IMG/VR virus record: IMGVR_UViG_3300001282_000006
From: a virus
Taxonomy: Duplodnaviria > Heunggongvirae > Uroviricota > Caudoviricetes
Length of the DNA stretch: 64,000 nt
Strand: one strand, 5' to 3'
The notes beneath the pieces are model-generated. The model worked only from the letters and a program-made list of their open reading frames with translations, was not told the DNA's origin and did no database searches. Both the position numbers and the translations under genes were made by a program. Positions 4,799 to 63,697 of this stretch are shown here, one piece after another (the stretch's first letter is position 1; the number at the start of each line of letters is the position of its first letter).

Positions 4799-4813
4799 AT
4801 TAATATATACATT

Positions 4814-5675: not shown

Positions 5676-5705
5676 TGAAAACATGTTAGAGTAATATATA
5701 CTCTA

Positions 5706-10394: not shown

Positions 10395-10406
10395 GTATAT
10401 ATTAAA
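10395..10406 (-). promoter_or_regulatory. TTTAATATATAC motif upstream of the minus-strand gene 8826..10370.
   Basis: Plus-strand gtatatattaaa. The same motif recurs upstream of many genes. Confidence 0.35.
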
Positions 10407-10437: not shown

Positions 10438-10629
10438 ATGTTGATCGTAGAGGTTGAAGGAAAACTAACAATTGAAAAAGCTCTTAAAATTCTTAAAAGA
10501 AAATGGGACAAAACTAAAGCTATGAAAGAGCTTAGAGGAAGAAAAGAATTTACTAAAAAGTCTGTAAAAAGAAGAGCTGAAGTAACAAGAGCCGCTTATA
10601 TTCAGAAGAAATACAGAAGTAATGATTAA
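10438..10629 (+). CDS. rpsU: Ribosomal protein bS21 homologue.
   Basis: 63 aa. IEKALKILKRKWDKTKAMKELRGRKEFTKKSVKRRAEVTRAAYIQKKY follows the bS21 pattern, Flavobacteria-like. Confidence 0.75.
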   Translation: MLIVEVEGKLTIEKALKILKRKWDKTKAMKELRGRKEFTKKSVKRRAEVTRAAYIQKKYRSND

Positions 10630-19502: not shown

Positions 19503-19514
19503 GTATATATTATT
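19503..19514 (-). promoter_or_regulatory. TATATATTA-type motif upstream of the minus-strand gene 15171..19481.
   Basis: Plus-strand gtatatattatt, 22 nt beyond the start codon. Confidence 0.3.
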
Positions 19515-23203: not shown

Positions 23204-23252
23204 AATTATGATTTTTTATTAATGTATATATTAAATTTAATATTCGATTTTT

Positions 23253-27102: not shown

Positions 27103-27250
27103 CTTCTTCTTCTTCTTGTTCTTCTATTTCAACTTCATTAATTAACTCATCTGCGCACCATTCGTGGTCATATCCAACATCACTGTCGTTGTAAAAATGT
27201 AATTTAGTAGTCATAAAATATTAGAATTTTTTTTGTAAAGTATATATTAA

Positions 27251-28298: not shown

Positions 28299-28907
28299 AT
28301 GATAAAAGTTGGACTTTCGGGTAATAGATATTCAGGTAAAAATGAAGTCTGTAATATTTTCAGAAAACTCACCATACCTGTTTTTGAAGCAGATACTGTT
28401 TTGAAATTTATTATAAATCATGACGCTTCTGTTAATAGCCAAATAATGGCAAAGTTAAAACCCTTACACGGTAAATCTGTTTATGTAGATCCACAATTTG
28501 TAAAAACTAAAACAGAATTTGATATAGTTGTAGATTGTGCTCAGCATGAACTAATGAGAGCTTATGAAGCTTTCTCTGAAAAACACAAATCTTCTATTTA
28601 CACAATATTTCATTCTTCAATTTTATTTGAAAGAAACTGGCATAAACTAATGAACCACAATATTGCTATTTTTTGTCCAAAAATTACACGAATGGAAAGA
28701 TGTAAAGAATTGACAAATATGAAAGTTTCTGATGTTGCTATGTCAATGAGAAATGAAATAGACGACTTAGATAAAAATAAAATGGCTAACTTTGTAGTTC
28801 ATAATTATAATGGTAGAAAAGTTTTAGACCAAGTTCATCAAATCGACCAGTTTGTTATTGACTCTTATTTAAGATTAGAACAAACTATCGTATCAAAACA
28901 CTATTAA
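28299..28907 (+). CDS. P-loop kinase-like protein (dephospho-CoA-kinase-like fold with a degenerate Walker A).
   Basis: MIKVGLSGNRYSGKNEV..FEAD resembles CoaE MxxIGLTGGIGSGKS...DAD. Start moved to the ATG at 28299. Confidence 0.35.
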   Translation: MIKVGLSGNRYSGKNEVCNIFRKLTIPVFEADTVLKFIINHDASVNSQIMAKLKPLHGKSVYVDPQFVKTKTEFDIVVDCAQHELMRAYEAFSEKHKSSIYTIFHSSILFERNWHKLMNHNIAIFCPKITRMERCKELTNMKVSDVAMSMRNEIDDLDKNKMANFVVHNYNGRKVLDQVHQIDQFVIDSYLRLEQTIVSKHY

Positions 28908-29371
28908 TGAAAACTATTAAAATAAAATTAATCGAACCAACAACTCAAAAATTGGCTTTTGTTAAGCTAATAAAAGAGTGTAGTGGACTTGGTCTAAAAG
29001 AAGCTAAAGATTTGTGTGATAATATACATAGTTATTCAGAAAGAGTTCATGAAATGCCTATTCGTGACTGGGAAACTTATGATTATAACACAGGAGTAAC
29101 TACACCAGCCACAACAGACTACCGTAGAAAATTTACTACTGAAATTAAAAATATTGAGGGTAAATTTGTTGTTAACGGTGGGGTTCAATGGGATAGAAAT
29201 GTAAAAATGTTACAACTTGGAATAGCTGATAAATCTGACTATACCGAATTTATGAAAGATTATATCTTAAATAAATTTGACAATTCAGAAGATTTACTTA
29301 CCTTTGTACTCAATAAGTTTTCTAAAGAAGATTTACAAGAAGCATTCAATAAAATTAATATAGAATTATAA
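28907..29371 (+). CDS. Protein whose N-terminal ~50 aa resemble the C-terminal domain of ribosomal protein bL12 (L7/L12), fused to an unknown domain.
   Basis: [25 protein letters not shown] compared with bL12 CTD [25 protein letters not shown]. Confidence 0.5.
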   Translation: [154 protein letters not shown]

Positions 29372-31049: not shown

Positions 31050-32978
31050 ATGAGTAACATTTTAAATTTTATGTCAAACTATTGGTGGATTGGAGCAATT
31101 GTACTTTGCTTAGTAATGTACAAGTTCATCCTTCGAGTATTTTTCGGACTAGTTATTGTTCCTGAGGACAAGATTGGTTTAGTAACAAAAAAGTTCGTTC
31201 TTTTTGGAGAACACAAAGAACTTACAGGTGACCGTATTATTGCGGTAAATGGTGAAGCAGGTTATCAAGCAGAAATGCTTTCTCCGGGTCTTCATTGGTG
31301 GATGTGGCCTTGGCAGTATAACATCGATATGCATGGATTCGTTGTTATCCCAGAAGGTCATATTGGGTTAGTATCCTCTAAAGACGGTACTGTTCCACAA
31401 ACAGGTCGTATCTTAGGACGTAGAGTAGAATGTGAGAACTTCCAAGATGCTGTTACATTCTTATCGAATGGTGGTCAGAAAGGTCGTCAGTCTGCTTTTA
31501 TTCCAAATGGTGTTTATAAAATCAATACTTACTTATTTGAAGTATCTATTGTTAAACAAGCTACTATTCAAGAGAATATGGTGGGTGTTGTAACTACATT
31601 AGATGGTGAGCCATTAGAGAATGGTCAGATTGCGGGTAAAAATGTTGAAGGACATAATAACTTCCAAGATTTTGATAAATTTCTTGAGTTAGGTGGTAAT
31701 CGTGGTTTACAACAACAAACTATCTTAGCTGGTACTTACAACTTAAACCCTTGGGCTGTTCAAGTAGAAGAAGTACAAATGACTGAGATTCCAATTGGAC
31801 ACGTTGGTGTTGTTATCTCTTTCGTTGGAGAAGATGGTGTTGACGTAACTGGTGTTAACTTCAAACACGGTAACTTAGTTGGTAAAGGACAAAAAGGTGT
31901 TTGGGCTGAGCCATTCGGACCTGGTAAATATCCTATCAATAAGTACACTAATAAGATTGAGTTAGTGCCTACAACAAACTTAGTTCTTAACTGGGCCAAC
32001 GCTCGTACTGAGTCTCACAACTTAGATAAAGGACTTAACACAATTACTGTTCGTTCTAAAGATGGTTTCCCATTCAACTTAGATGTATCACAGATTATCC
32101 ACATTCCAATGACAGAAGCACCTAAAGTGATTGCTCGATTTGGTAACATGAATAACTTGGTATCTCAAGTTTTAGAGCCAACAATTGGTAACTACTTCCG
32201 TAACTCGGCTCAAGATTCTGATGTGATTGCTTTCTTAACTACTCGTAAAGAACGTCAAGATTCTGCGAAACAACACATTTCTAAAGTATTAGATGAATAT
32301 AATGTTCACGCTGTTGATACTTTGATTGGTGATATCGTTCCACCACAAGAGTTGATGAAAACGTTAACTGACCGTAAGATTGCTCAAGAGCAAGAAGTAA
32401 CTTTTGAAACTCAAAAGAAAGCCGCTATCTCTCGTCAAACTTATGAAAAAGAAACTGCGATTGCGGACATGCAAGGTGAAGTAGTAAAAGCCGACCAAGG
32501 TGTACAAATTGCTGAACGTCACGCTGATGCTTCTGTTAAGAAAGCTAAAGGTGATGCTGAATCTGTTAAAATTGCGGCTGAGGCAAGTGCTGAATCAACA
32601 AAGTTGAAAGCAGAAGCAGATGCTACAAGAACATCATTGATTGGTAATGCTGAGGCTGAGGCTATCCTTTCTAAGGGTAAATCTACAGCAGAAGCATACA
32701 AGCTAGCCGTTGAGGCGATGGGTAAAGAAAACTTTACAACATTTAAGGTTACCGAAGAGATTGGTAAAAACGGTGTGAAAATCATGCCAGACTTGTTAAT
32801 CAACGGAGGTGGACAAAGCGGGAACGGAGCAATAGACGGATTATTGGGAGTTCAAATCTTAAACATGATGGGTAACCAAATTGGTAAGAGTATGAACGAC
32901 ACGACAGTGAAATCAGAAGTACCTACTACTGATGTGCCTGTTGAAGATCTTTCTGTCCAAAGGAAAGGTAAGAAGTAA
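31050..32978 (+). CDS. Flotillin-like SPFH/band-7 domain protein (YqiK-like).
   Basis: N-terminal TM (WWIGAIVLCLVMY) and an SPFH core. C-terminal Ala/Glu/Lys-rich coiled coil AEASAESTKLKAEADATRTSLIGNAEAEAIL typical of bacterial flotillins. Confidence 0.75.
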   Translation: MSNILNFMSNYWWIGAIVLCLVMYKFILRVFFGLVIVPEDKIGLVTKKFVLFGEHKELTGDRIIAVNGEAGYQAEMLSPGLHWWMWPWQYNIDMHGFVVIPEGHIGLVSSKDGTVPQTGRILGRRVECENFQDAVTFLSNGGQKGRQSAFIPNGVYKINTYLFEVSIVKQATIQENMVGVVTTLDGEPLENGQIAGKNVEGHNNFQDFDKFLELGGNRGLQQQTILAGTYNLNPWAVQVEEVQMTEIPIGHVGVVISFVGEDGVDVTGVNFKHGNLVGKGQKGVWAEPFGPGKYPINKYTNKIELVPTTNLVLNWANARTESHNLDKGLNTITVRSKDGFPFNLDVSQIIHIPMTEAPKVIARFGNMNNLVSQVLEPTIGNYFRNSAQDSDVIAFLTTRKERQDSAKQHISKVLDEYNVHAVDTLIGDIVPPQELMKTLTDRKIAQEQEVTFETQKKAAISRQTYEKETAIADMQGEVVKADQGVQIAERHADASVKKAKGDAESVKIAAEASAESTKLKAEADATRTSLIGNAEAEAILSKGKSTAEAYKLAVEAMGKENFTTFKVTEEIGKNGVKIMPDLLINGGGQSGNGAIDGLLGVQILNMMGNQIGKSMNDTTVKSEVPTTDVPVEDLSVQRKGKK

Positions 32979-35100: not shown

Positions 35101-35140
35101 CAAAAAAAGCCTCAGATAAATCTGAGGCTTTTCTTTTTCT
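35101..35140. terminator. Bidirectional rho-independent terminator.
   Basis: aaaaaaagcctcaga-taaa-tctgaggcttttctttt. Confidence 0.75.
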
Positions 35141-35153
35141 GGTAGAATCAATC

Positions 35154-36251
35154 TTAACCTAAGGTCAAGAAGATTTTACGAGACATTCTATCCACTGAAA
35201 GAACTTTCACTTTGATATCTTGTCCTTGTGAGAACTTTTTACCAAGTTTCTCCATTTCTGAAGTGTGGATAAGACCCACTGTCTCATCATCAAGGTTTAC
35301 TAAAGTACCAAATGCTTTGGTGTCTTTAACAGTTCCTTCGATAACTTGACCGTTTTTAATGTTGTCCCAAAGAGTTTCACGAAGAATTTGAGTTAAGATA
35401 ATTTTATCTTTAATCACTTCTTTGATGTAAAAATCAATTTGAAATCCTGGTGTGATAGAAGTTAACTTCTCTGCCCATTCAGGATTAACGTTTGCTTTGT
35501 GGATCATTCCAGTTAAGCATTCGTTGAACTCCACGAACACACCAAATGGTGTAGTTCCTGTAACGTGACCGCTATAGATTTTGTTGTATTCCAATTCTTT
35601 AACAGCCTCAGGTATAAGAGTTTGAAGATACTTACGTCTTGAAACGATATAAGTTCCTTCGTTTTGAGCATAAGACTCAATCATAACGCTGAATGTTTTT
35701 CCAACGATTGCGTTAGGATCGTGTAATTTGTTGATTCCGGCTAAAGTGTTTGGCATAAATCCTGGAAGTGTAACACCACCGTGATTTAATTCAACATCAT
35801 AACCAGCTGGGTTAAGACTCTTAACTGTAACCATTACTGATTCGCCTTCAACAAGGGCTTTAAGCTTAGCGTGAGCTCTAGATTCATAAAGAGAAGCAAC
35901 ACTTCCTTTAATCATAAAAGCATCTTGATTTACTTCAGTGATTAATACGTCAATCATATCATTCAAGTTTAGGTTCTTGAAGTATTTAGACTCACCAACT
36001 TTATCATCAACTCTCACATCGTCTTTATAGCCAACCACACTAAACACAAATTGACCTGCTGACATGCCAACGTATTTAGCTGAAACAACTTGACCTTCTT
36101 CTGGGATAGCAATCTGGTCAAGATTGTAAAGTTTAAGCATTTCTTGGTATTCTTTCGTATTTTTGTTACGAGTACCTTTTGAGTTAAATTGAGTGTTTTC
36201 AAACACATCCATTAAATCCTCATTTCCGATTGTTTTGTTATTCATATTCAT
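35154..36251 (-). CDS. S1 RNA-binding-domain protein (ribosomal protein bS1-like, multiple S1 repeats).
   Basis: Several S1-like blocks, for example GQVVSAKYVGMSAGQFVFSV... and GQVIEGTVKDTKAFGTLVNLDDETVGLIHTSEM...GQDIKVKVLSVDRMSRKIFLTLG. Confidence 0.65.
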   Translation of the reverse strand: MNMNNKTIGNEDLMDVFENTQFNSKGTRNKNTKEYQEMLKLYNLDQIAIPEEGQVVSAKYVGMSAGQFVFSVVGYKDDVRVDDKVGESKYFKNLNLNDMIDVLITEVNQDAFMIKGSVASLYESRAHAKLKALVEGESVMVTVKSLNPAGYDVELNHGGVTLPGFMPNTLAGINKLHDPNAIVGKTFSVMIESYAQNEGTYIVSRRKYLQTLIPEAVKELEYNKIYSGHVTGTTPFGVFVEFNECLTGMIHKANVNPEWAEKLTSITPGFQIDFYIKEVIKDKIILTQILRETLWDNIKNGQVIEGTVKDTKAFGTLVNLDDETVGLIHTSEMEKLGKKFSQGQDIKVKVLSVDRMSRKIFLTLG

Positions 36252-36308: not shown

Positions 36309-36719
36309 TTAAAAAATTCTTTCAATGTTATTTCTCATCATATAGTCACGAACTCTTGCTGCTTCTTCATACTTTTCTTTTTTGATTAAGTCATCAAGTT
36401 TTTTATTTAAATCTTTAGTGATTTCTTCTATGCTCTTTTCTTTAGAAAGTTGTTTGATATCATCAATAAAAGAGTTGTAAAAGTTTTCCATTTGTGAAAT
36501 GTCCACAAAATACACAGGTACTGGAACAGGTAAAAGTTTTTGCTCAGAAGATTTTTCATCTTCATTCATTTCTTTTAGTTTATCACTGTTTTTTATTTTT
36601 TTAATAAAATCTTCAGTTAAAGCAGAATTCTCAACCAAATATTTGGCTAAGTGATAAGGTCTGTTTTTAAACATTTTTAGCATTATTACTAAACTGCGAT
36701 ATAGTTCCTCATTTTCCAT
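36309..36719 (-). CDS. Hypothetical protein.
   Basis: 136-aa ORF. Confidence 0.55.
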   Translation of the reverse strand: MENEELYRSLVIMLKMFKNRPYHLAKYLVENSALTEDFIKKIKNSDKLKEMNEDEKSSEQKLLPVPVPVYFVDISQMENFYNSFIDDIKQLSKEKSIEEITKDLNKKLDDLIKKEKYEEAARVRDYMMRNNIERIF

Positions 36720-36752: not shown

Positions 36753-37442
36753 TTAGATTTTTTCAAATAAAATATTGAAACTATAGTCAAAATTATACTG
36801 AGAAGATGGTTTTTCCTGTGTAAATAAAACTTTTAATGTTGATTCATCAAATGCGACATCCATTTGTTTCTTTTTAAGTAAATTAGAATCTAAAGATATA
36901 GTAGATTTCCAAGTGTTTTTATATCTTAAAACATTTTGACTTCTTAAATCTGTATAAGAAACATAAAGATCCAATCTACTAAGTTTATATCTATTTGTGA
37001 CATTATTAGATATATATTCTCTAATAGCAGTATTAACGTCATTAGTTCTAGTTAATGGGTTACTTATACCTTCAAATGTTCTATATCTTTTCATAACGGC
37101 AAATAAATAATCTGATAGGATATTTCCTAAATCTATATTTAAAATCCATTTAGTATTACTTTCTTTTTGATAATCTAATTGAGCATCATCTAAAGTTAGT
37201 TTTTGATGTGATTTCATATTATCAGAAGCAGAATAAACTTGTGTGAGTAGTGATGATTCAATTGCTAAATCTATTTGCTCACCAGTTGATTTTTGATAGT
37301 AAATTATATTTTGATTAGAAACGTAAATACTATCTTCAACTTCTAACATTTTAGCAGCAAAGAAATTACTTTCTTCGACCATATTGAAAGTTCCATATAT
37401 TTGTGTATTACTATATTCAGGTGACATATAACTTCTTCTCAT
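36753..37442 (-). CDS. Hypothetical (possibly virion) protein.
   Basis: 229-aa ORF in the structural gene block. Confidence 0.55.
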   Translation of the reverse strand: MRRSYMSPEYSNTQIYGTFNMVEESNFFAAKMLEVEDSIYVSNQNIIYYQKSTGEQIDLAIESSLLTQVYSASDNMKSHQKLTLDDAQLDYQKESNTKWILNIDLGNILSDYLFAVMKRYRTFEGISNPLTRTNDVNTAIREYISNNVTNRYKLSRLDLYVSYTDLRSQNVLRYKNTWKSTISLDSNLLKKKQMDVAFDESTLKVLFTQEKPSSQYNFDYSFNILFEKI

Positions 37443-41558: not shown

Positions 41559-44500
41559 TTATCTGATAGAAGTGTTAATTGCTTGAGTTGCCTTCTTAAC
41601 AATTACTTTGCTTCTATTTATGTTAAATTTAATACTAAATGTAAATGGTCTATTTTCAGATTCATTTTCTAAGAAGAATTTAATTTTCTTAATATGTTTA
41701 ACTGTTTGTCTAGATGTATTTAGATTTATGTATTTATAGTTTAATCCTGGTTGATTATTATCTAATGAGTTCATTTTAAAGTAGATATTTAATGGAATAA
41801 CTGTTGAATTAACATCTCCTGTATCTATAGTTTTAACTTTTTCTGAATTGGTCTCCACAATTGTTTCTAAATTATTTACAACTGGATGAATAGTTGTTAG
41901 TAATTTAGCTGTTGATGAAACTGAAACATTAGTGTCTAACCATTTAGATGGATCTAATAATGACTTATTATTACCAACAAATGAGAGTATAGATGTTTCA
42001 TTATACCCTATATTATACTCATTTGATGATAAAACATTAGTAATAGAGTTTGATGCGTTTGTAGTAAATATATTACCAATATTTTCAGTTAATTTAGTAA
42101 CTGATGTTTCTAATACTGAATCATAATTAACTGTCCAGATATATTGATTGTCTAATTGTGTTCTTGTTTGACCTGATGAATCTGATGTAATCAATTCATC
42201 TTGATCATTAACCCAGAATGTTTGAGGAGCTCCGGTATTATAGAAATTAGGATTTTGTAAATAAGTTCTTCCAGAAAGTAAACCTAATGGTGAACTTGTT
42301 GATTTATTTCTAATTTTAACAACAAAGTCTTTAACAACATAAACGTTATTAGCATAAACTCTACCAGATGGAATACCTGCTCCTGTATAAGAGTCAAGAT
42401 AATCTTCACATTCAATATTAAATGTAGTTTCACTTCCATTAGCAACGACAAACTCTTGGTTGTTTCTAAGAATAACAACTTCAAGTTCACCTTTAACTCT
42501 TTTAATTTTCTCTTCTAAACTTAAAATTCTTTCTTGTAAAGATTTTAAGTAGGTATATAAGTCCAAAGCAACACCATTCTCATCTTTGAATCCTGATAAA
42601 ATTTTATTACTATCGTGATGGAATGTAAGATTATTAACAACTATAGTATCTGATAAGTGATCATCTAAACCTTTAGACGATAACTCTTGATTCATTTTGA
42701 TTTTTAAATCTTCTGAAGTTGCCGATTTTAATATAAAATCACTTTCATTCAATACATTATTTAAATCATCTGGAAACTCAACAGTTAAAATTTCAGACCA
42801 ATCTGATTCTGTTGGAGATTCGGGCCAACCTACTTCTGAAATAGATTTAATTCTCATTTCAATTTTTTCATTAGCTTGAATATCTACATCAATTTGATTA
42901 ATATTTGGCGTGTCCGCACTTTCAACATCTTCAATTTCCCAAGTGTATTCACTAGTTCCTGGATTATATGTTCTTTTTCGAGCATCAGTCTTAAACTCTT
43001 TCCAGTTTGAGAAAGCCGCTTTAGATTGAGTATTATCAACATTAAATGTTTCAATAGGAGATTCAGTACCATCTTTAGAAACATATCTATATTGAACTCT
43101 AAATTGAACAATTTCTTGTGGTCTTGTACCTCTTGTTACAACAGCTGATGGTACTGTCCAGAATCCTCTAACTCTAAATTTAGGTTGAACTTTAGTTTTA
43201 GGATTATTTGATAATTGAATAATTTCTTGAGTTGTTGTAGAAAGTAATTTAGATTTACTATCTTTTTTTCTAGTCAAATCTTCTATCTCAAGCATAACTT
43301 GTTTTTTATCAGATTCTGATTTAAACTTAACAAATTTAGATTTAGCGTTTTTATCAACTATAGCATCTTGAATTTGTTGAACTTCAGATTTTAATGTTAA
43401 ATGATAATTATGTTTTTGCTTAATTAAATTAGAATCTGGTGTATCTGTTAAGTGTTTATTAATTTGAACAACTTTGAAGTTACCAGCATTTAATGTAGGA
43501 GCCAATGGTGTACCAGCTAAAGCATTAGGTGTCTTTTTAGCAACTAAGTCTTTCAATACAGTTCCATAATCATATACATAATCTGTATAGAATTGTTCCA
43601 TAGTAAGACCATTCTCAGGCGCGTTTGAATCCAAAGTTAAATCATTTGTCCAGTATCCTGTACCTAAACTCCAATTTCTTGCCAATAAGTGATTATCAGC
43701 ATTTAGAGGTTTAATAAAAATAACATTTCTTTCATTATAACCAACACTTATTTTAACTATTTTACTATAAACAACTGGTGAATATATTTTAATTGTGCTA
43801 ATTCCAACAGCAATTGGTTCAACACCTTCAACTCTTTCAAATCTAACTCTTGGACTTGACTCTGATGTTGAAACTTCGGTTACTTTATATCTTGTTGATG
43901 TTTGTTCTGAATTTATAATAATTTCACTACCAATAGATAATTGAGCTGTTTCATTAGTACTTCTAACTAAATAAGTTAATGTATCTAAAACATACCAAAG
44001 TTTTCTGTTAATTCTATCTTCTTGTATTTTAAGAACTGAAAATTGACCATCATATAATAAATCGTGTGGATCTAAATCAAATACTTGTTCATCAAATTGA
44101 GGATTAGTAGGATAAAGAACACCAGATGTTGTATTGTGCCAGTTTTCAAAATCAGAAATATTAATTGATGCGTTACCTCTAAATAAAGTATTAAAACTAT
44201 TAAGAGCTGATTGACCAAGTGTTGTTAAAGTACCTGTAGCATCTTTTGCGAAATCAACGATATATCTTCTAGATTGAACTTTTCTTACATTATTTTCTAC
44301 TTTACCGGTTAAATCTAATTCAATAGAAATAATAGGACTCATAAGTCCATCAAAAAACCAGTTATTCAAAGCTTTAAATTTAGTAAGTGACCCAAGTGTT
44401 CCGACAGCATTTGGTTCTCTATTTAAATCTACTGTAATTATTTTTTTGTATTTATTTTGATTAGATGTTGAAATCATCGCACCACCAGCATCAATACTAT

Positions 44501-44726
44501 AAAGAGAGTTGATATTATTATTTAATCTATCAATTTCACCTTTTAGTGAAGCAAATGATGGAACGGCATAAGTTCTTAGAACTCCATTTTCATCATAAAT
44601 TTTAATATTTACAGATTGGTCTGTTGTGGTAGCTAAACTATTAATTTGACCTAGTATTTCTATAATATTCTTATTAGAAGAGATAACCTGGTCAGCTACG
44701 GTCGGAAATGAGCTTTGAATTGGCAT
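41559..44726 (-). CDS. Large virion structural protein (1055 aa) with a central coiled coil.
   Basis: Long ORF. LKSLQERILSLEEKIKRVKGELEVV coiled-coil segment. Confidence 0.8.
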   Translation of the reverse strand: MPIQSSFPTVADQVISSNKNIIEILGQINSLATTTDQSVNIKIYDENGVLRTYAVPSFASLKGEIDRLNNNINSLYSIDAGGAMISTSNQNKYKKIITVDLNREPNAVGTLGSLTKFKALNNWFFDGLMSPIISIELDLTGKVENNVRKVQSRRYIVDFAKDATGTLTTLGQSALNSFNTLFRGNASINISDFENWHNTTSGVLYPTNPQFDEQVFDLDPHDLLYDGQFSVLKIQEDRINRKLWYVLDTLTYLVRSTNETAQLSIGSEIIINSEQTSTRYKVTEVSTSESSPRVRFERVEGVEPIAVGISTIKIYSPVVYSKIVKISVGYNERNVIFIKPLNADNHLLARNWSLGTGYWTNDLTLDSNAPENGLTMEQFYTDYVYDYGTVLKDLVAKKTPNALAGTPLAPTLNAGNFKVVQINKHLTDTPDSNLIKQKHNYHLTLKSEVQQIQDAIVDKNAKSKFVKFKSESDKKQVMLEIEDLTRKKDSKSKLLSTTTQEIIQLSNNPKTKVQPKFRVRGFWTVPSAVVTRGTRPQEIVQFRVQYRYVSKDGTESPIETFNVDNTQSKAAFSNWKEFKTDARKRTYNPGTSEYTWEIEDVESADTPNINQIDVDIQANEKIEMRIKSISEVGWPESPTESDWSEILTVEFPDDLNNVLNESDFILKSATSEDLKIKMNQELSSKGLDDHLSDTIVVNNLTFHHDSNKILSGFKDENGVALDLYTYLKSLQERILSLEEKIKRVKGELEVVILRNNQEFVVANGSETTFNIECEDYLDSYTGAGIPSGRVYANNVYVVKDFVVKIRNKSTSSPLGLLSGRTYLQNPNFYNTGAPQTFWVNDQDELITSDSSGQTRTQLDNQYIWTVNYDSVLETSVTKLTENIGNIFTTNASNSITNVLSSNEYNIGYNETSILSFVGNNKSLLDPSKWLDTNVSVSSTAKLLTTIHPVVNNLETIVETNSEKVKTIDTGDVNSTVIPLNIYFKMNSLDNNQPGLNYKYINLNTSRQTVKHIKKIKFFLENESENRPFTFSIKFNINRSKVIVKKATQAINTSIR

Positions 44727-53532: not shown

Positions 53533-53539
53533 AATGTAT

Positions 53540-54018
53540 ATATTAAAATTTATTTGGTAAATTGAAACTTTCTTTCTACATTTGTATAAGAATTAACCAA
53601 GAGTCGTTAAGACAAGAGCTAAGAAATTAGCGTGTCGAAAGATTTCACATTAATATATGATAAAACCGTGTGAGTCTTAACGAAATTATGGTAGTAAGTA
53701 GCTGTTAAATAAGTTAACACCCTTGTTAAAGCCAGTGAACTACCTTGTAAATATAACTATATAATAATAGTAAGGGTGTAGATATCGAAGTCGTGTTGGT
53801 GATAGATGTCTCAAATAACTAATGATTAAACCCAACTCAAAGAAGATTTTAAACGAGCAGAATGGTAACACTGCTCAACCGAGGCGAAAGCATATTAAAA
53901 GGTAATCCTAAGTGATGAGGTCACTAAAAGTCAAGGTAAGGTTCTCGGATTTCGACCATACTTGACAGACGTTCCACCAATCTTCTTTTTTAATTGTAAA
54001 TAAGTAAATAAAAATAAA
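53540..54018. other. 480-bp ORF-free region that is GC-richer than its surroundings. It is a candidate structured non-coding RNA or regulatory region (tmRNA partner of SmpB, or an origin).
   Basis: No ORF longer than 28 aa in a genome otherwise packed end to end. Local GC is clearly above background. Confidence 0.25.
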
Positions 54019-55900: not shown

Positions 55901-55973
55901 GGAACCTAAGCTAATCAGGTGAAAGCACTGGACTGAAAATCCAGGGAGCCCGGATCGTTACCGGGAGGTTCCA
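55901..55973 (+). tRNA. tRNA with a GAA anticodon (Phe-like) and an atypical T-loop ATCGTTA.
   Basis: GGAACCT..CTGGA-CTGAAAA-TCCAG..CCCGG-ATCGTTA-CCGGG-AGGTTCC-A. Confidence 0.45.
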
Positions 55974-56050
55974 CGGAGTCCTGAGATAAACAGGAGACCC
56001 CCACTCCCATATGGCAGTCAGTCCGGTAATCTGATGAAGTGGGGTATTAT

Positions 56051-56124
56051 GGTGAATGTAGCTCAATCGGTAGAGCGCTGGTTTGTGGTACCAGAGGTAG
56101 CGGGATCGTAACCCGTCATTTACC
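56051..56124 (+). tRNA. tRNA-His(GUG) with the extra G-1:C73 pair.
   Basis: G-GTGAATG-TA-GCTCAATCGGTAGAGC..CTGGT-TTGTGGT-ACCAG..GCGGG-ATCGTAA-CCCGT-CATTTAC-C. Confidence 0.65.
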
Positions 56125-56129
56125 CAAAA

Positions 56130-56201
56130 GGAGACTTAGCTAAGTAGGTTTAGCGTCCGGTTGAAGCCCGGAAGAGATCGGTTCGATTCCGGTAGTCTCC
56201 A
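56130..56201 (+). tRNA. tRNA-Phe(GAA).
   Basis: GGAGACT-TA-GCTAAGTAGGTTTAGC-G-TCCGG-TTGAAGC-CCGGA..ATCGG-TTCGATT-CCGGT-AGTCTCC-A. Confidence 0.65.
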
Positions 56202-56207
56202 CAACAT

Positions 56208-56278
56208 ACGTCATACAGACAAGGTGTCGGTCAGGTCTCCAAAACCTCGACGGTGGGGTTCGATTCCTCAATGGCGTG
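56208..56278 (+). tRNA. tRNA-Trp(CCA).
   Basis: ACGTCAT..AGGT-CTCCAAA-ACCT..TGGGG-TTCGATT-CCTCA-ATGGCGT-G. The acceptor stem pairs along its full length. Confidence 0.55.
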
Positions 56279-56337
56279 CTAATATTATAAAAGAAAAATT
56301 AAAAGAAATGAAAACAAAATTGAAATATAAACGCTAG

Positions 56338-56363
56338 GCAACGATTCATACGGATCGTTGCCC
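56338..56363 (+). other. Perfect 9-bp hairpin inside the tRNA cluster (processing or terminator element).
   Basis: GGCAACGAT-tcatacgg-ATCGTTGCC. Confidence 0.4.
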
Positions 56364-56376
56364 TCAATAAGACAAT

Positions 56377-56449
56377 GATTCCGTAGCTCAATCGGTGGAG
56401 CTTCCGACTTTTAATCGGAAGGTTGTGGGTTCGAACCCCACCGGGATCA
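56377..56449 (+). tRNA. tRNA-Lys(UUU).
   Basis: GATTCCG-TA-GCTCAATCGGTGGAGC-T-TCCGA-CTTTTAA-TCGGA-AGGTT-GTGGG-TTCGAAC-CCCAC-CGGGATC-A. Confidence 0.75.
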
Positions 56450-56463
56450 CTAAAAACACAAAT

Positions 56464-56546
56464 GATCCTGTCGCTTAGCGGCTATAGCAACTGGCTTTTA
56501 ACCAGTAGATTAATTTCAACCGTGGGTTCGAGTCCCACCAGGATCA
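56464..56546 (+). tRNA. tRNA-Lys-like paralogue (UUU anticodon as read) with a 15-nt variable region.
   Basis: GATCCTG..ACTGG-CTTTTAA-CCAGT-AGATTAATTTCAACC-GTGGG-TTCGAGT-CCCAC-CAGGATC-A. Confidence 0.45.
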
Positions 56547-56555
56547 CTAAGTAAT

Positions 56556-56638
56556 GCGTCTGTCGCTTAGTGGCTATAGCAACTGGCTTTTAACCAGTAG
56601 ATTAATTTCAACCGTGGGTTCGAGTCCCACCAGACGCA
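56556..56638 (+). tRNA. Tandem near-identical copy of the previous tRNA with a different acceptor stem (GCGTCTG/CAGACGC).
   Basis: The body is identical to 56464..56546 except for one D-loop base. All seven acceptor-stem base pairs are replaced. Confidence 0.45.
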
Positions 56639-56645
56639 CAAAATT

Positions 56646-56729
56646 GATTCCGTCGCATAGCGGCGATTGCGCCAGACTCTTAATCTGATGATGAAAAGTC
56701 CACCGTGGGTTCGAGTCCCACCGGAATCA
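56646..56729 (+). tRNA. tRNA-Lys-like paralogue (CUU anticodon as read) with an expanded variable region.
   Basis: GATTCCG..CAGA-CTCTTAA-TCTG..GATGATGAAAAGTCCACC-GTGGG-TTCGAGT-CCCAC-CGGAATC-A. Confidence 0.4.
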
Positions 56730-56738
56730 CAAAAAATG

Positions 56739-56879
56739 GAGAGAGTAGCTCAGTTGGTAGAGCACGTTATTATACTCTGATAAGTATTCTCTGATTACGG
56801 TTAACGTAATTAGTAGTGATGTTAAGAGTTACTTCGGCTGTTAACCGCGTGGTCGTAGGTTCGAGTCCTGCCTCTCTCC
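56739..56879 (+). tRNA. tRNA gene interrupted by a ~65-nt insertion (putative small intron). A possible anticodon arm CGG-CTGTTAA-CCG gives GUU/Asn.
   Basis: Canonical GAGAGAG-TA-GCTCAGTTGGTAGAGC 5' part and GTAGG-TTCGAGT-CCTGC-CTCTCTC-C 3' part, separated by extra sequence containing AGAGTTACTTCG. Confidence 0.4.
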
Positions 56880-56945
56880 CTAGTTATGAGACTGTTTAGA
56901 ATTTTATCGACTTGGCACTTTTCAAGTAACGTAATAAATTCATTT

Positions 56946-57073
56946 GGGGATGTAGCTCAGTGGTAGAGAAAACTATCTCTTTTGAAATTTTACCTCGTAA
57001 GAGTGTTGATTGAGAGAGTTACTTCGTATATTTTGAAATTATAAGGTCGTTGGTTCGAATCCAACCATCCCCA
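56946..57073 (+). tRNA. tRNA gene interrupted by a ~55-nt insertion related to the one in 56739..56879.
   Basis: GGGGATG-TA-GCTCAGTGGTAGAG...GTTGG-TTCGAAT-CCAAC-CATCCCC-A. The insert contains GAGAGTTACTTCG and a duplicated TTTTGAAATT. Confidence 0.4.
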
Positions 57074-57116
57074 CAAAAAAAGAAGAATAAAAAATTAATA
57101 TATAACAAATAAGATT

Positions 57117-57194
57117 ATGAAAACAATTATTAACACATCGTCAAAATCGTCAAGTCGCTCGTCAAAAATGAGTGAGGTTCGATCGTGTTCATAA
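57117..57194 (+). CDS. Possible 25-aa Ser-rich micro-ORF inside the tRNA cluster.
   Basis: ATG preceded by TTAATATATAAC and followed by a terminator. MKTIINTSSKSSSRSSKMSEVRSCS. Confidence 0.15.
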   Translation: MKTIINTSSKSSSRSSKMSEVRSCS

Positions 57195-57214
57195 TATTCA
57201 AATAAGATATTAAA

Positions 57215-57251
57215 GAAACCCTTCGAACATCAGTTTGAAGGGTTTTTTGTT
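57215..57251 (+). terminator. Rho-independent terminator between tRNA sub-clusters.
   Basis: aaacccttc-gaacatcagttt-gaagggttttttg. Confidence 0.7.
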
Positions 57252-57258
57252 TTTATAT

Positions 57259-57333
57259 GGTTCTATAGTTTAACTGGATAAAACACTCGGCTACGAACCG
57301 AGAGACGTGAAGGTTCGAATCCTTCTAGAATCA
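57259..57333 (+). tRNA. tRNA-Arg(ACG).
   Basis: GGTTCTA-TA-GTTTAACTGGATAAAAC-A-CTCGG-CTACGAA-CCGAG..GAAGG-TTCGAAT-CCTTC-TAGAATC-A. Confidence 0.7.
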
Positions 57334-57338
57334 CAAAT

Positions 57339-57422
57339 GGAGAGGTAATTTAGCTGGCGCTAAAGCTAGTCTTGAAAACTAGTCGTACCTACGGGTATGG
57401 GGATCGATACCTCACCTCTCCG
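57339..57422 (+). tRNA. tRNA-Ser(UGA), class II.
   Basis: GGAGAGG..CTAGT-CTTGAAA-ACTAG, long variable arm CGTACCTACGG, TGGGG-ATCGATA-CCTCA-CCTCTCC-G. Confidence 0.65.
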
Positions 57423-57427
57423 CAACC

Positions 57428-57513
57428 GGAAGGAGTCCGAATGGACGAGGACACCGCCTTGAAAGCGGCTGGGTCGAAAGGCTTTGGGGGTTCGATTCCC
57501 TCTTCTTCCGCCA
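57428..57513 (+). tRNA. Second class-II tRNA with a UGA anticodon (Ser) and an encoded 3' CCA.
   Basis: GGAAGGA..CCGC-CTTGAAA-GCGG, long variable arm, GGGGG-TTCGATT-CCCTC-TTCTTCC-G-CCA. Confidence 0.55.
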
Positions 57514-57515
57514 AT

Positions 57516-57601
57516 GGAGAGTAAACTAGTCAGGGTACTAGCACCGCCTGCTAAGCGAGTGGCACAATAAAATGTGTGAGTTTCGAATACTCTGCTCTCC
57601 G
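57516..57601 (+). tRNA. Class-II tRNA, probably Ser(GCU). The anticodon stem is weak.
   Basis: GGAGAGT..CTGCTAA loop, variable hairpin CACAATAAAATGTG, TTCGAAT T-loop, GCTCTCC-G. Confidence 0.45.
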
Positions 57602-57613
57602 CAAAAGATAACT

Positions 57614-57700
57614 GGAGAGTTGTCCGAGTGGTTTATGGAGCACGCTTGGAAAGCGTGTGTACTTGAAAGAGTACCGAGGGTTCGAATCCCTCACTCTCCG
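57614..57700 (+). tRNA. tRNA-Ser(GGA), class II.
   Basis: GGAGAGT-T-GTCCGAGTGGTTTATGGAGCA-CACGC-TTGGAAA-GCGTG-TGTACTTGAAAGAGTACC-GAGGG-TTCGAAT-CCCTC-ACTCTCC-G. Confidence 0.7.
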
Positions 57701-57717
57701 CATAAAAATTAAGAATT

Positions 57718-62707: not shown

Positions 62708-62837
62708 AGTCAAGCTTTTTTTATTATTGTATATATTATTTTTTTTAACCAATTTTTCACACAATTTAAGAATTATATCACCATGTATCAATCTTGATTT
62801 TTGTATAAATTCTTCTTGTGTTAATTTTTTAGGCATT

Positions 62838-63636: not shown

Positions 63637-63697
63637 TAAGGTATATATTAAAACTTTTGATATTATTAAAGTATAAATTAATAAAATAATCTATTAT

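Follow-up and report, generated by a model that had tools for sequence, protein, structure and literature searches.

Ribosomal protein bS1 brings mRNAs to the ribosome, and on Bacteroidota ribosomes, which do not use Shine-Dalgarno (SD) pairing, bS1 and bS21 are the leading candidates for start-site selection. We analysed a gene for a bS1-like protein in a 64,000-nt stretch of DNA from a Caudoviricetes phage (IMG/VR record IMGVR_UViG_3300001282_000006), referred to here as the window. The bS1-like protein has two degenerate domains followed by two canonical ones, in the order known from cellular bS1. With a probability of about 55%, we favour a role as a phage-encoded surrogate of bS1 that would dock at the exchangeable bS1 site of the host ribosome through its N-terminus and first two domains (D1-D2), capture A-rich leaders lacking an SD sequence through its last two (D3-D4), and possibly cooperate with a bS21 encoded in the same window. 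Proteins of this class were already published in 2020 as 'possible rpS1' in this phage clade, and the window is a further member, with 67% identity to the published genomes. Added here are the mapping of D1-D4, candidate anchor residues, a three-gene cassette and a bS21 with Tyr54.

Domain architecture and relationship to bS1

The first-pass annotation of the window had described a minus-strand protein of 365 aa with several S1 repeats. The open reading frame (ORF) proved correct in position, strand and length (Table 1), and the peptides that had been quoted for the repeats correspond to residues 306-333 and 343-365. Using the Pfam S1 profile (PF00575), the whole protein scored 74 bits, with two stretches above the cut-off. 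D1 and D2, each scanned alone with PF00575, gave no match even at E ≤ 10. AlphaFold2 (AF2), for which the input was a 23-sequence family alignment, predicted four five-stranded OB barrels at the residues listed in Table 1, with a predicted local distance difference test (pLDDT) score mostly of 70-90 in the barrels and of 80-92 in D4. The description of several S1 repeats therefore holds for the predicted fold, with its four OB/S1 domains, while only D3 and D4 pass the Pfam S1 cut-off. A lone degenerate OB fold, the outcome that had been named as speaking against a bS1-like identity, is not what was found: four OB domains are predicted and two of them are canonical S1 domains. The protein ends where D4 ends, and D5-D6 and the C-terminal tail of bS1 are absent.

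In bacteria, bS1 is a tandem array of three to six S1/OB-fold domains. Cellular bS1 proteins, such as E. coli RpsA (557 aa) and Flavobacterium johnsoniae bS1 (591 aa; PDB 9zcd), have the same colinear arrangement of degenerate D1-D2 and canonical D3-D4 and share the lysine of the D1 loop with the phage protein. A helix-loop-helix before D1 (~residue 50), known from Bacteroidota bS1, is also predicted for the phage protein. Cellular bS1 differs in that D5-D6 and a C-terminal tail are present and in that it is encoded by the host, whereas the phage protein has four domains and is encoded by the phage. The most conserved motif of the family, FMPNTLAGINKL...YIVSRRKYL, lies in D2. This domain aligns with D2 of E. 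coli bS1 (AFLPGSL...VVVSRRA), placing Y151 opposite F120 and F165 opposite F130, and the corresponding signatures read FMPNTL...VSRRKY in the phage protein and AFLPGS...VSRRA in E. coli bS1.

Comparisons of sequences, profiles and predicted structure all placed bS1 first. The best NCBIfam matches were bS1 equivalog models, which were matched over the full length of the protein (e.g., residues 18-364 on positions 15-373 of 580). When a profile of 88 family members was compared with one of 104 Bacteroidota bS1 sequences using hhalign, the probability was 99.9% and the E value 2.6e-37 over 318 colinear columns (query 37-364, template 34-371), mapping D1 to D1 through D4 to D4 of bS1. A home-built Bacteroidota bS1 hidden Markov model (HMM) aligned query residues 8-363 to profile positions 7-371. 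Sequence searches of the PDB, started either from the single protein or from the family profile, returned bS1 chains first, residues 31-361 of mycobacterial bS1 matching query residues 48-363. The top Foldseek match in the PDB was bS1 on the 30S subunit (9gut_B, E 9e-23, 365 columns), and Foldseek also matched D1-D2 fragments of bS1 from ribosomes and from Qbeta replicase (4q7j, 4r71). In NCBIfam and Foldseek, PNPase, RNase R, NusA, Tex, GSP13 and Rrp5 gave single-domain matches only, and weaker ones; the generic S1 matches of D3 and D4 in NCBIfam were to GSP13/CvfD (65-70 bits) and PNPase (~55 bits). No catalytic, KH or other accessory domain was found in the 365-aa protein by the Pfam, NCBIfam, PDB and Foldseek searches. 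Full-length colinear matches were thus to bS1 only, which supports the bS1-like assignment of the first-pass annotation over a protein of the RNase, NusA or PNPase type. Identity to any cellular bS1 is only ~20%. Descent from Bacteroidota bS1 in particular could not be traced by similarity, as the scores were about equal across cellular bS1 proteins and the Bacteroidota model, NF004953, was not the best NCBIfam match.

In E. coli, D1-D3 of bS1 keep 30S binding, mRNA docking and mRNA melting (PMC3858243, Duval et al. 2013). Deletion of D5-D6 is viable, removal of D4 as well results in very slow growth, and loss of D3 is lethal (PMC3858243). The domain content of E. coli rpsA delta-56 is the same D1-D4 that is found in the phage protein; the former is an engineered host truncation, whereas the latter evolved naturally in a phage lineage that has diverged strongly. 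By this comparison of domain content, the phage protein appears to correspond to the minimal fully functional core of bS1.

Distribution of the phage family

By tblastn, the protein was 67% identical to homologues in LR756502 (642 kb) and LR745206 (635 kb), 44% identical to those in LR756501/3 (735 kb), 39% to that in LR756504 and 32% to that in LR756500, and the Prevotella Lak megaphages gave partial matches at 35-39%. The synteny block shared with LR756502 is longer than 18 kb. At E ≤ 1e-5 there were 2445 homologues, the best 120 of which are 67-98% identical and 352-373 aa long; several close homologues are labelled 'ribosomal protein S1' by JGI. Among clusters formed at 50% identity there were 3299 matches. 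Of these, 127 had E ≤ 1e-30, with lengths almost always of 345-420 aa, and long proteins of the cellular type (563-811 aa) first appeared near E 1e-27 to 1e-30. The family was present on at least 169 IMG/VR viral contigs, many of them 340-676 kb in length, and the identical protein was found on 10 contigs. JGI samples containing the identical gene include 3300042890, 3300042875, 3300042352 and 3300042303. Four 'genome' matches were contigs of metagenome-assembled genomes that resemble mis-binned phage, and in one case the neighbour genes were also the same. The dN/dS ratio relative to a homologue at 93% amino-acid identity was 0.096. Judged from these sequences, the family is phage-restricted, old and under purifying selection. 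Bacterial contamination was excluded by the recurrence of the exact protein and its neighbours on phage contigs, and a pseudogene or chance ORF by the dN/dS of 0.10 together with the 2445 homologues.

The 'possible rpS1' genes that Al-Shayeb et al. (2020, Nature, PMC7162821) described in huge phages belong to the same family and the same clade and have the same association with a lack of SD sequences. The features of that family of Mahaphage and relatives, namely four domains in 345-420 aa, very large phage contigs and SD cores at background level, were all found for the gene described here. Al-Shayeb et al. (2020) found SD sequences to be rare in phages with possible rpS1 genes, and they predicted Bacteroidetes hosts for all genomes of more than 634 kb (PMC7162821). 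The host of the present phage is probably also a member of the Bacteroidota. Phage-encoded bS1 had been suggested earlier from viromes. The Microcystis jumbo phage PhiMa05 also encodes a bS1 homologue, which has been proposed to replace host bS1 (ISME J 2026, PMC13157829). PhiMa05 bS1 groups with Vampirovibrio bS1 and appears to be a fairly recent capture located beside five other ribosomal protein genes, whereas the present family is old and restricted to phages.

Candidate 30S anchor and proposed role in translation initiation

The anchoring of E. coli bS1 involves Phe5 and Phe9 of an N-terminal helix on uS2, Lys43 of the D1 loop inserted into a uS2 pocket (Zn), Phe79, and bS21 as a second anchor, and the protein splits into a ribosome-binding half (D1-D2) and an RNA-binding half (PMC10123108). 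The succession of degenerate D1-D2 and canonical D3-D4 in the phage protein mirrors this split. In F. johnsoniae, residues 1-42 of bS1 form a helix-loop-helix on uS2/uS8 that includes the aromatic helix FLANFNWHNF (PMC13000457). D1 starts at ~residue 52 in the phage protein, compared with ~50 in Bacteroidota bS1 and ~21 in E. coli bS1. HMMER paired G74-Y-K76-D-D of the phage protein with G41-L-K43-S-E of E. coli bS1, and G74, K76 and D77 are invariant among the 23 family members of the alignment, in which F17 is also invariant and L13 nearly so. In the alignment to the Bacteroidota bS1 HMM, F17 falls on the F of F[DN]W, F22 on the Y/F that comes next, and EYQEMLKLY on the second helix, with posteriors of 0.5-0.9. 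The pattern F[DNS]W was found within the first 80 residues of 17 of the 112 full-length cluster representatives and in none of the later 80-residue control windows, and the homologue of Lak-B1 carries GSFDWSPYDDG. The query protein itself differs from Bacteroidota bS1 in that it does not have the Trp of the F[DN]W helix. Together, these alignments are suggestive, at moderate confidence, of a correspondence between the N-terminal helix-loop-helix and D1 lysine of the phage protein and the elements that anchor bS1 to the 30S subunit.

The window is AT-rich (~30% GC), SD cores precede 4 of its 59 genes, which equals the random background (5.7%), and the leaders of its genes are ~50% A and 3-15% G. 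The window also encodes a bS21 of 63 aa, which the first-pass annotation had pointed out and which the PF01165 profile bears out. The phage bS21 contains a K-K-S42 motif followed twelve residues later by Y54. In F. johnsoniae bS21, these positions are taken by the KPS/T motif and by Tyr54, which is specific to Bacteroidetes. In Bacteroidetes bS21, Tyr54 stacks on A1534 and thereby sequesters the anti-SD (PMC7797042). The phage bS21 has no N-terminal extension and, unlike rpsU of Flavobacteriales, no upstream SD. A bS21 gene is present together with S1 in this window and in all five relatives of more than 634 kb.

We propose that the N-terminal helix-loop-helix and D1-D2 would dock on the platform of the host 30S subunit at uS2/uS8, beside bS21, which is the place usually held by the weakly bound and exchangeable host bS1. 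D3-D4 would then catch single-stranded A/U-rich leaders and pass them into the mRNA channel, and the extra or replacement bS1 might raise initiation on phage mRNAs or bias it toward them. Since the ribosomes of the probable Bacteroidota host would ignore the SD and the phage leaders are A-rich and SD-less, an added bS1 would favour phage mRNAs. In F. johnsoniae, loss of the bS21 C-terminus destabilises the bS1 helix-loop-helix, and the boost that bS1 gives to SD-less initiation depends on intact bS21 in the ribosome (PMC13000457). Given the functional coupling of the two proteins on Bacteroidota ribosomes, the phage bS21 may stabilise the phage bS1. We infer 30S binding, an effect on mRNA selection and cooperation with the phage bS21 from these comparisons, and the first-pass suggestion that the phage remodels host ribosomes is plausible.

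That suggestion had drawn in addition on a 'bL12-like' module. The protein in question (154 aa) does match PF00542 above the cut-off, but the match covers the first half only of the L7/L12 C-terminal domain. Its gene is flanked by genes for a CoaE-like kinase and a DUF6915 protein, an arrangement that is also conserved in LR756502 and on a JGI contig of 254 kb.

Several observations weigh against a bS1 that acts on the ribosome. For residues 1-29, the AF2 pLDDT is below 50. When the N-terminus alone was compared with Bacteroidota bS1 by hhalign, weak support (E 0.0014) was obtained for the second helix and the beginning of D1, and the first helix was without statistical support; the N-terminus plus D1 alone gave no significant match to any solved structure in the PDB. 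Every NCBIfam bS1 equivalog cut-off was missed by far, with 111 vs 624, 106 vs 524, 98.6 vs 577, 92.6 vs 368 and, for NF004953, 59 vs 720 (models considered: TIGR00717, NF0049xx and NF005208). Across its body, the protein is about equally distant from the bS1 proteins of Bacteroidia, Flavobacteriia and E. coli and from two other cellular bS1 proteins, and host-matched co-evolution is therefore without support. bS21 was not detected in LR756500 or in the Lak phages, which carry the S1-like gene, and a literature search turned up no demonstration that any phage bS1 binds ribosomes.

The high divergence of D1 and the N-terminus, which alone are unmatched to solved bS1 structures, and the scores far below the equivalog cut-offs would also suit a protein of bS1 descent that acts off the ribosome, as an RNA chaperone or mRNA-binding protein that coats or melts A/U-rich phage transcripts and so counters their decay or structure. 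D3-D4 are canonical RNA-binding S1 domains, isolated bS1 melts RNA by itself (PMC3858243), and the wording of Al-Shayeb et al. was 'on or off the ribosome' (PMC7162821). We regard such a role as possible, though rather unlikely: the most conserved parts of the family are D2 and the GYKDD loop of D1, which in bS1 contact the ribosome and do not bind RNA, and a conserved N-terminal helix-loop-helix would be purposeless in a pure RNA binder.

A sequence motif near several start codons of the window is over-represented. The motif TAATATATAC has 32 matches (≤1 mismatch) in the window compared with 19 ± 4.6 in shuffled sequences, and none of 100 shuffles reached 32. Sites are located at 4801-4810, 5692-5701, 10395-10404(-), 19503-19512(-), 23224-23233(-), 27240-27249(-), 53536-53545(-), 62729-62738(-) and 63641-63650(-). 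The exact copies are mostly found on the coding strand, either 3-4 nt or 20-24 nt ahead of a start codon, and the motif is absent upstream of S1. It may be a phage promoter, with a -10-like element and hence very short leaders, or it may replace the missing SD as an initiation element. A sigma-70 promoter scan of the window was uninformative, with matches at shuffle background.

The surrogate reading can be extended to a matched pair. bS1 and bS21 contact and stabilise each other on the Bacteroidota 30S platform, and on this basis the phage bS21 with its Tyr54 and the D1-D4 bS1 could together replace the host pair, giving rise to phage-specialised ribosomes on which a capture arm without D5-D6 would prefer phage leaders, possibly with TAATATATAC. 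We put this forward only tentatively and think it unlikely as a whole.

Conversely, the phage protein could act as a competitive blocker, filling the bS1 site on the host 30S subunit while serving host mRNAs poorly without D5-D6; this would shut off the host, and phage messages, perhaps with short leaders or leaderless, would escape. The missing D5-D6 would fit, as would the position of TAATATATAC 3-4 nt before several start codons, which would imply very short leaders if the motif is a promoter -10 element. A heterologous viral bS21 has moreover been shown to enter E. coli ribosomes and to bring activity down to ~5% (PMC6375957). We consider a blocker improbable, since E. coli bS1 without D5-D6 supports normal growth, so that truncation alone is not disabling, and since most genes of the window have long A-rich intergenic leaders that would need capture of the bS1 type.

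For the favoured role as a bS1 surrogate, the consequences can be stated in both directions. A minimal bS1, with an anchor and two RNA-binding domains, kept across hundreds of genomes and often together with bS21, would amount to a natural experiment on the parts of bS1 that SD-less initiation uses. If the protein does bind the 30S subunit, this would be the first evidence that a viral bS1 is functional and would provide a tool for probing or reprogramming Bacteroidota initiation. If it does not, it would be a case of a ribosomal protein turned into a free RNA-binding factor.

Gene neighbourhood and other features of the window

The S1 gene is the last of a minus-strand string that runs from 44726 to 35154, and a strong bidirectional intrinsic terminator hairpin follows directly. 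Upstream in the string are the genes for UVR136, which is 136 aa long and carries a UvrB/UvrC (UVR) motif at its C-terminal end, for p229, and for two giant proteins of 1366 and 1055 aa. The coordinates of these and the other features are collected in Table 1. The first-pass annotation had placed the S1 gene in a structural module, and this could not be upheld: no neighbour matched a structural family in Pfam, PHROGs, tblastn, AF2 or BFVD analyses. The flanking genes are uncharacterised or encode non-structural proteins (the UVR-motif protein, an M28 peptidase, an SPFH protein, a CoaE-like protein and a DNA ligase). A PHROGs search with S1 itself gave no informative match.

Table 1. Features of the window discussed in the text, with coordinates in the 64,000-nt stretch.
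Feature	Position	Strand	Details and basis
bS1-like protein gene	35154..36251	minus	365 aa, ATG start, stop codon 35154-35156; ORF list
N-terminal region, candidate 30S (uS2/uS8) anchor	36099..36251	minus	residues 1-51; AF2 helices 11-17 and 33-41 plus loop
D1, degenerate OB fold	35901..36098	minus	residues 52-117; invariant G74-Y-K76-D77 loop; AF2
D2, degenerate OB fold	35637..35846	minus	residues 136-205; AF2
D3, canonical S1 RNA-binding domain	35382..35582	minus	residues 224-290; PF00575 31.6 bits; AF2
D4, canonical S1 RNA-binding domain	35157..35354	minus	residues 300-365; PF00575 46 bits; AF2
Bidirectional intrinsic terminator hairpin	35102..35135	both	15-pair stem, T-run on both strands, directly 3' of the S1 stop; terminator scan and sequence read
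UVR136, C-terminal UvrB/UvrC (UVR) motif	36309..36719	minus	136 aa; PF02151 23.4 bits; immediately upstream of S1
p229, first gene of the p229-UVR136-S1 cassette	36753..37442	minus	229 aa; conserved position
bS21	10438..10629	plus	63 aa; PF01165 38 bits vs cut-off 27
'bL12-like' protein	28907..29371	plus	154 aa; PF00542 29.7 bits vs cut-off 25.9; profile positions 3-37 of 67

In 46 of 80 viral loci, the p229-UVR136-S1 cassette was found with its gene order and spacing unchanged. These comprise every locus with an S1 identity of at least ~53% and a few more distant ones, and the downstream genes vary. This fixed order suggests that the three genes form a functional cassette. In LR756504, a UVR136 homologue lies beside S1 (PF02151 33 bits), the UVR-S1 pair being kept at 39% S1 identity. 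In LR756501, LR756500 and Lak, S1 is kept without the p229 and UVR neighbours. LR756501, LR756504 and L003 have a 207-239-aa protein starting with MRISSQNNQF.F.LP at the position equivalent to p229; BLASTP between p229 and the 239-aa positional equivalent of LR756501 detected no similarity. p229 had no Pfam or PHROG match, its AF2 model was unreliable (pLDDT 45), and a BFVD search returned only uncharacterised proteins.

The fixed order and spacing of these genes, and the persistence of the UVR-S1 pair in the more distant LR756504, would be expected if S1 were a cofactor of another phage machine, with p229 and UVR136 as possible partners, comparable to host S1 with Qbeta replicase, T4 RegB or lambda Beta. 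D1-D2 of bS1 are known protein-protein docking modules in Qbeta replicase (4q7j, 4r71). The neighbours, however, have no recognisable enzymatic or RNA-related domain in Pfam, PHROGs or BFVD searches, and the distant members of the family (LR756501, LR756500 and Lak) keep S1 without them, which makes a cofactor the least probable of the roles weighed here.

Neither giant protein had an informative Pfam or PHROG match; only the 1055-aa protein was matched at all, by phrog_29329 (function unknown). The 1055-aa protein (41559-44726, minus strand) is conserved in Chryseobacterium phage MA9V, Tenacibaculum phages PTm1, PTm5 and pT24, Flavobacterium phage MaF61, Lak (Prevotella) and, as gp264, Sphingomonas phage PAU. 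The tblastn matches in jumbo phages were annotated only as 'hypothetical protein', and the gene for the 1055-aa protein appears to belong to the core set of this phage group. Its homologue in LR756501 lies ~220 kb from S1, and the link of S1 to the giant proteins is lost in the more distant relatives.

GC content at third codon positions was ~0.28-0.30 for the S1 gene (0.30) and the SPFH/Band-7 gene (31050-32978), compared with ~0.13 in the genes of the giant neighbours. Codon bias due to high expression could account for this difference, as could a separate history of the genes.

An Rfam scan of the window detected tRNAs only; near S1, no match to a known leader or regulatory RNA was obtained. 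The tRNA array is located at 55901-57701 on the plus strand, where Aragorn called nine genes. Rfam added two long tRNA-like matches, at 56739-56879 (141 nt) and 56946-57073 (128 nt), and three tRNA-Lys calls have lengths of 84-85 nt, unusual for a tRNA of this type. The long tRNA calls may represent introns, insertions or misassignment.

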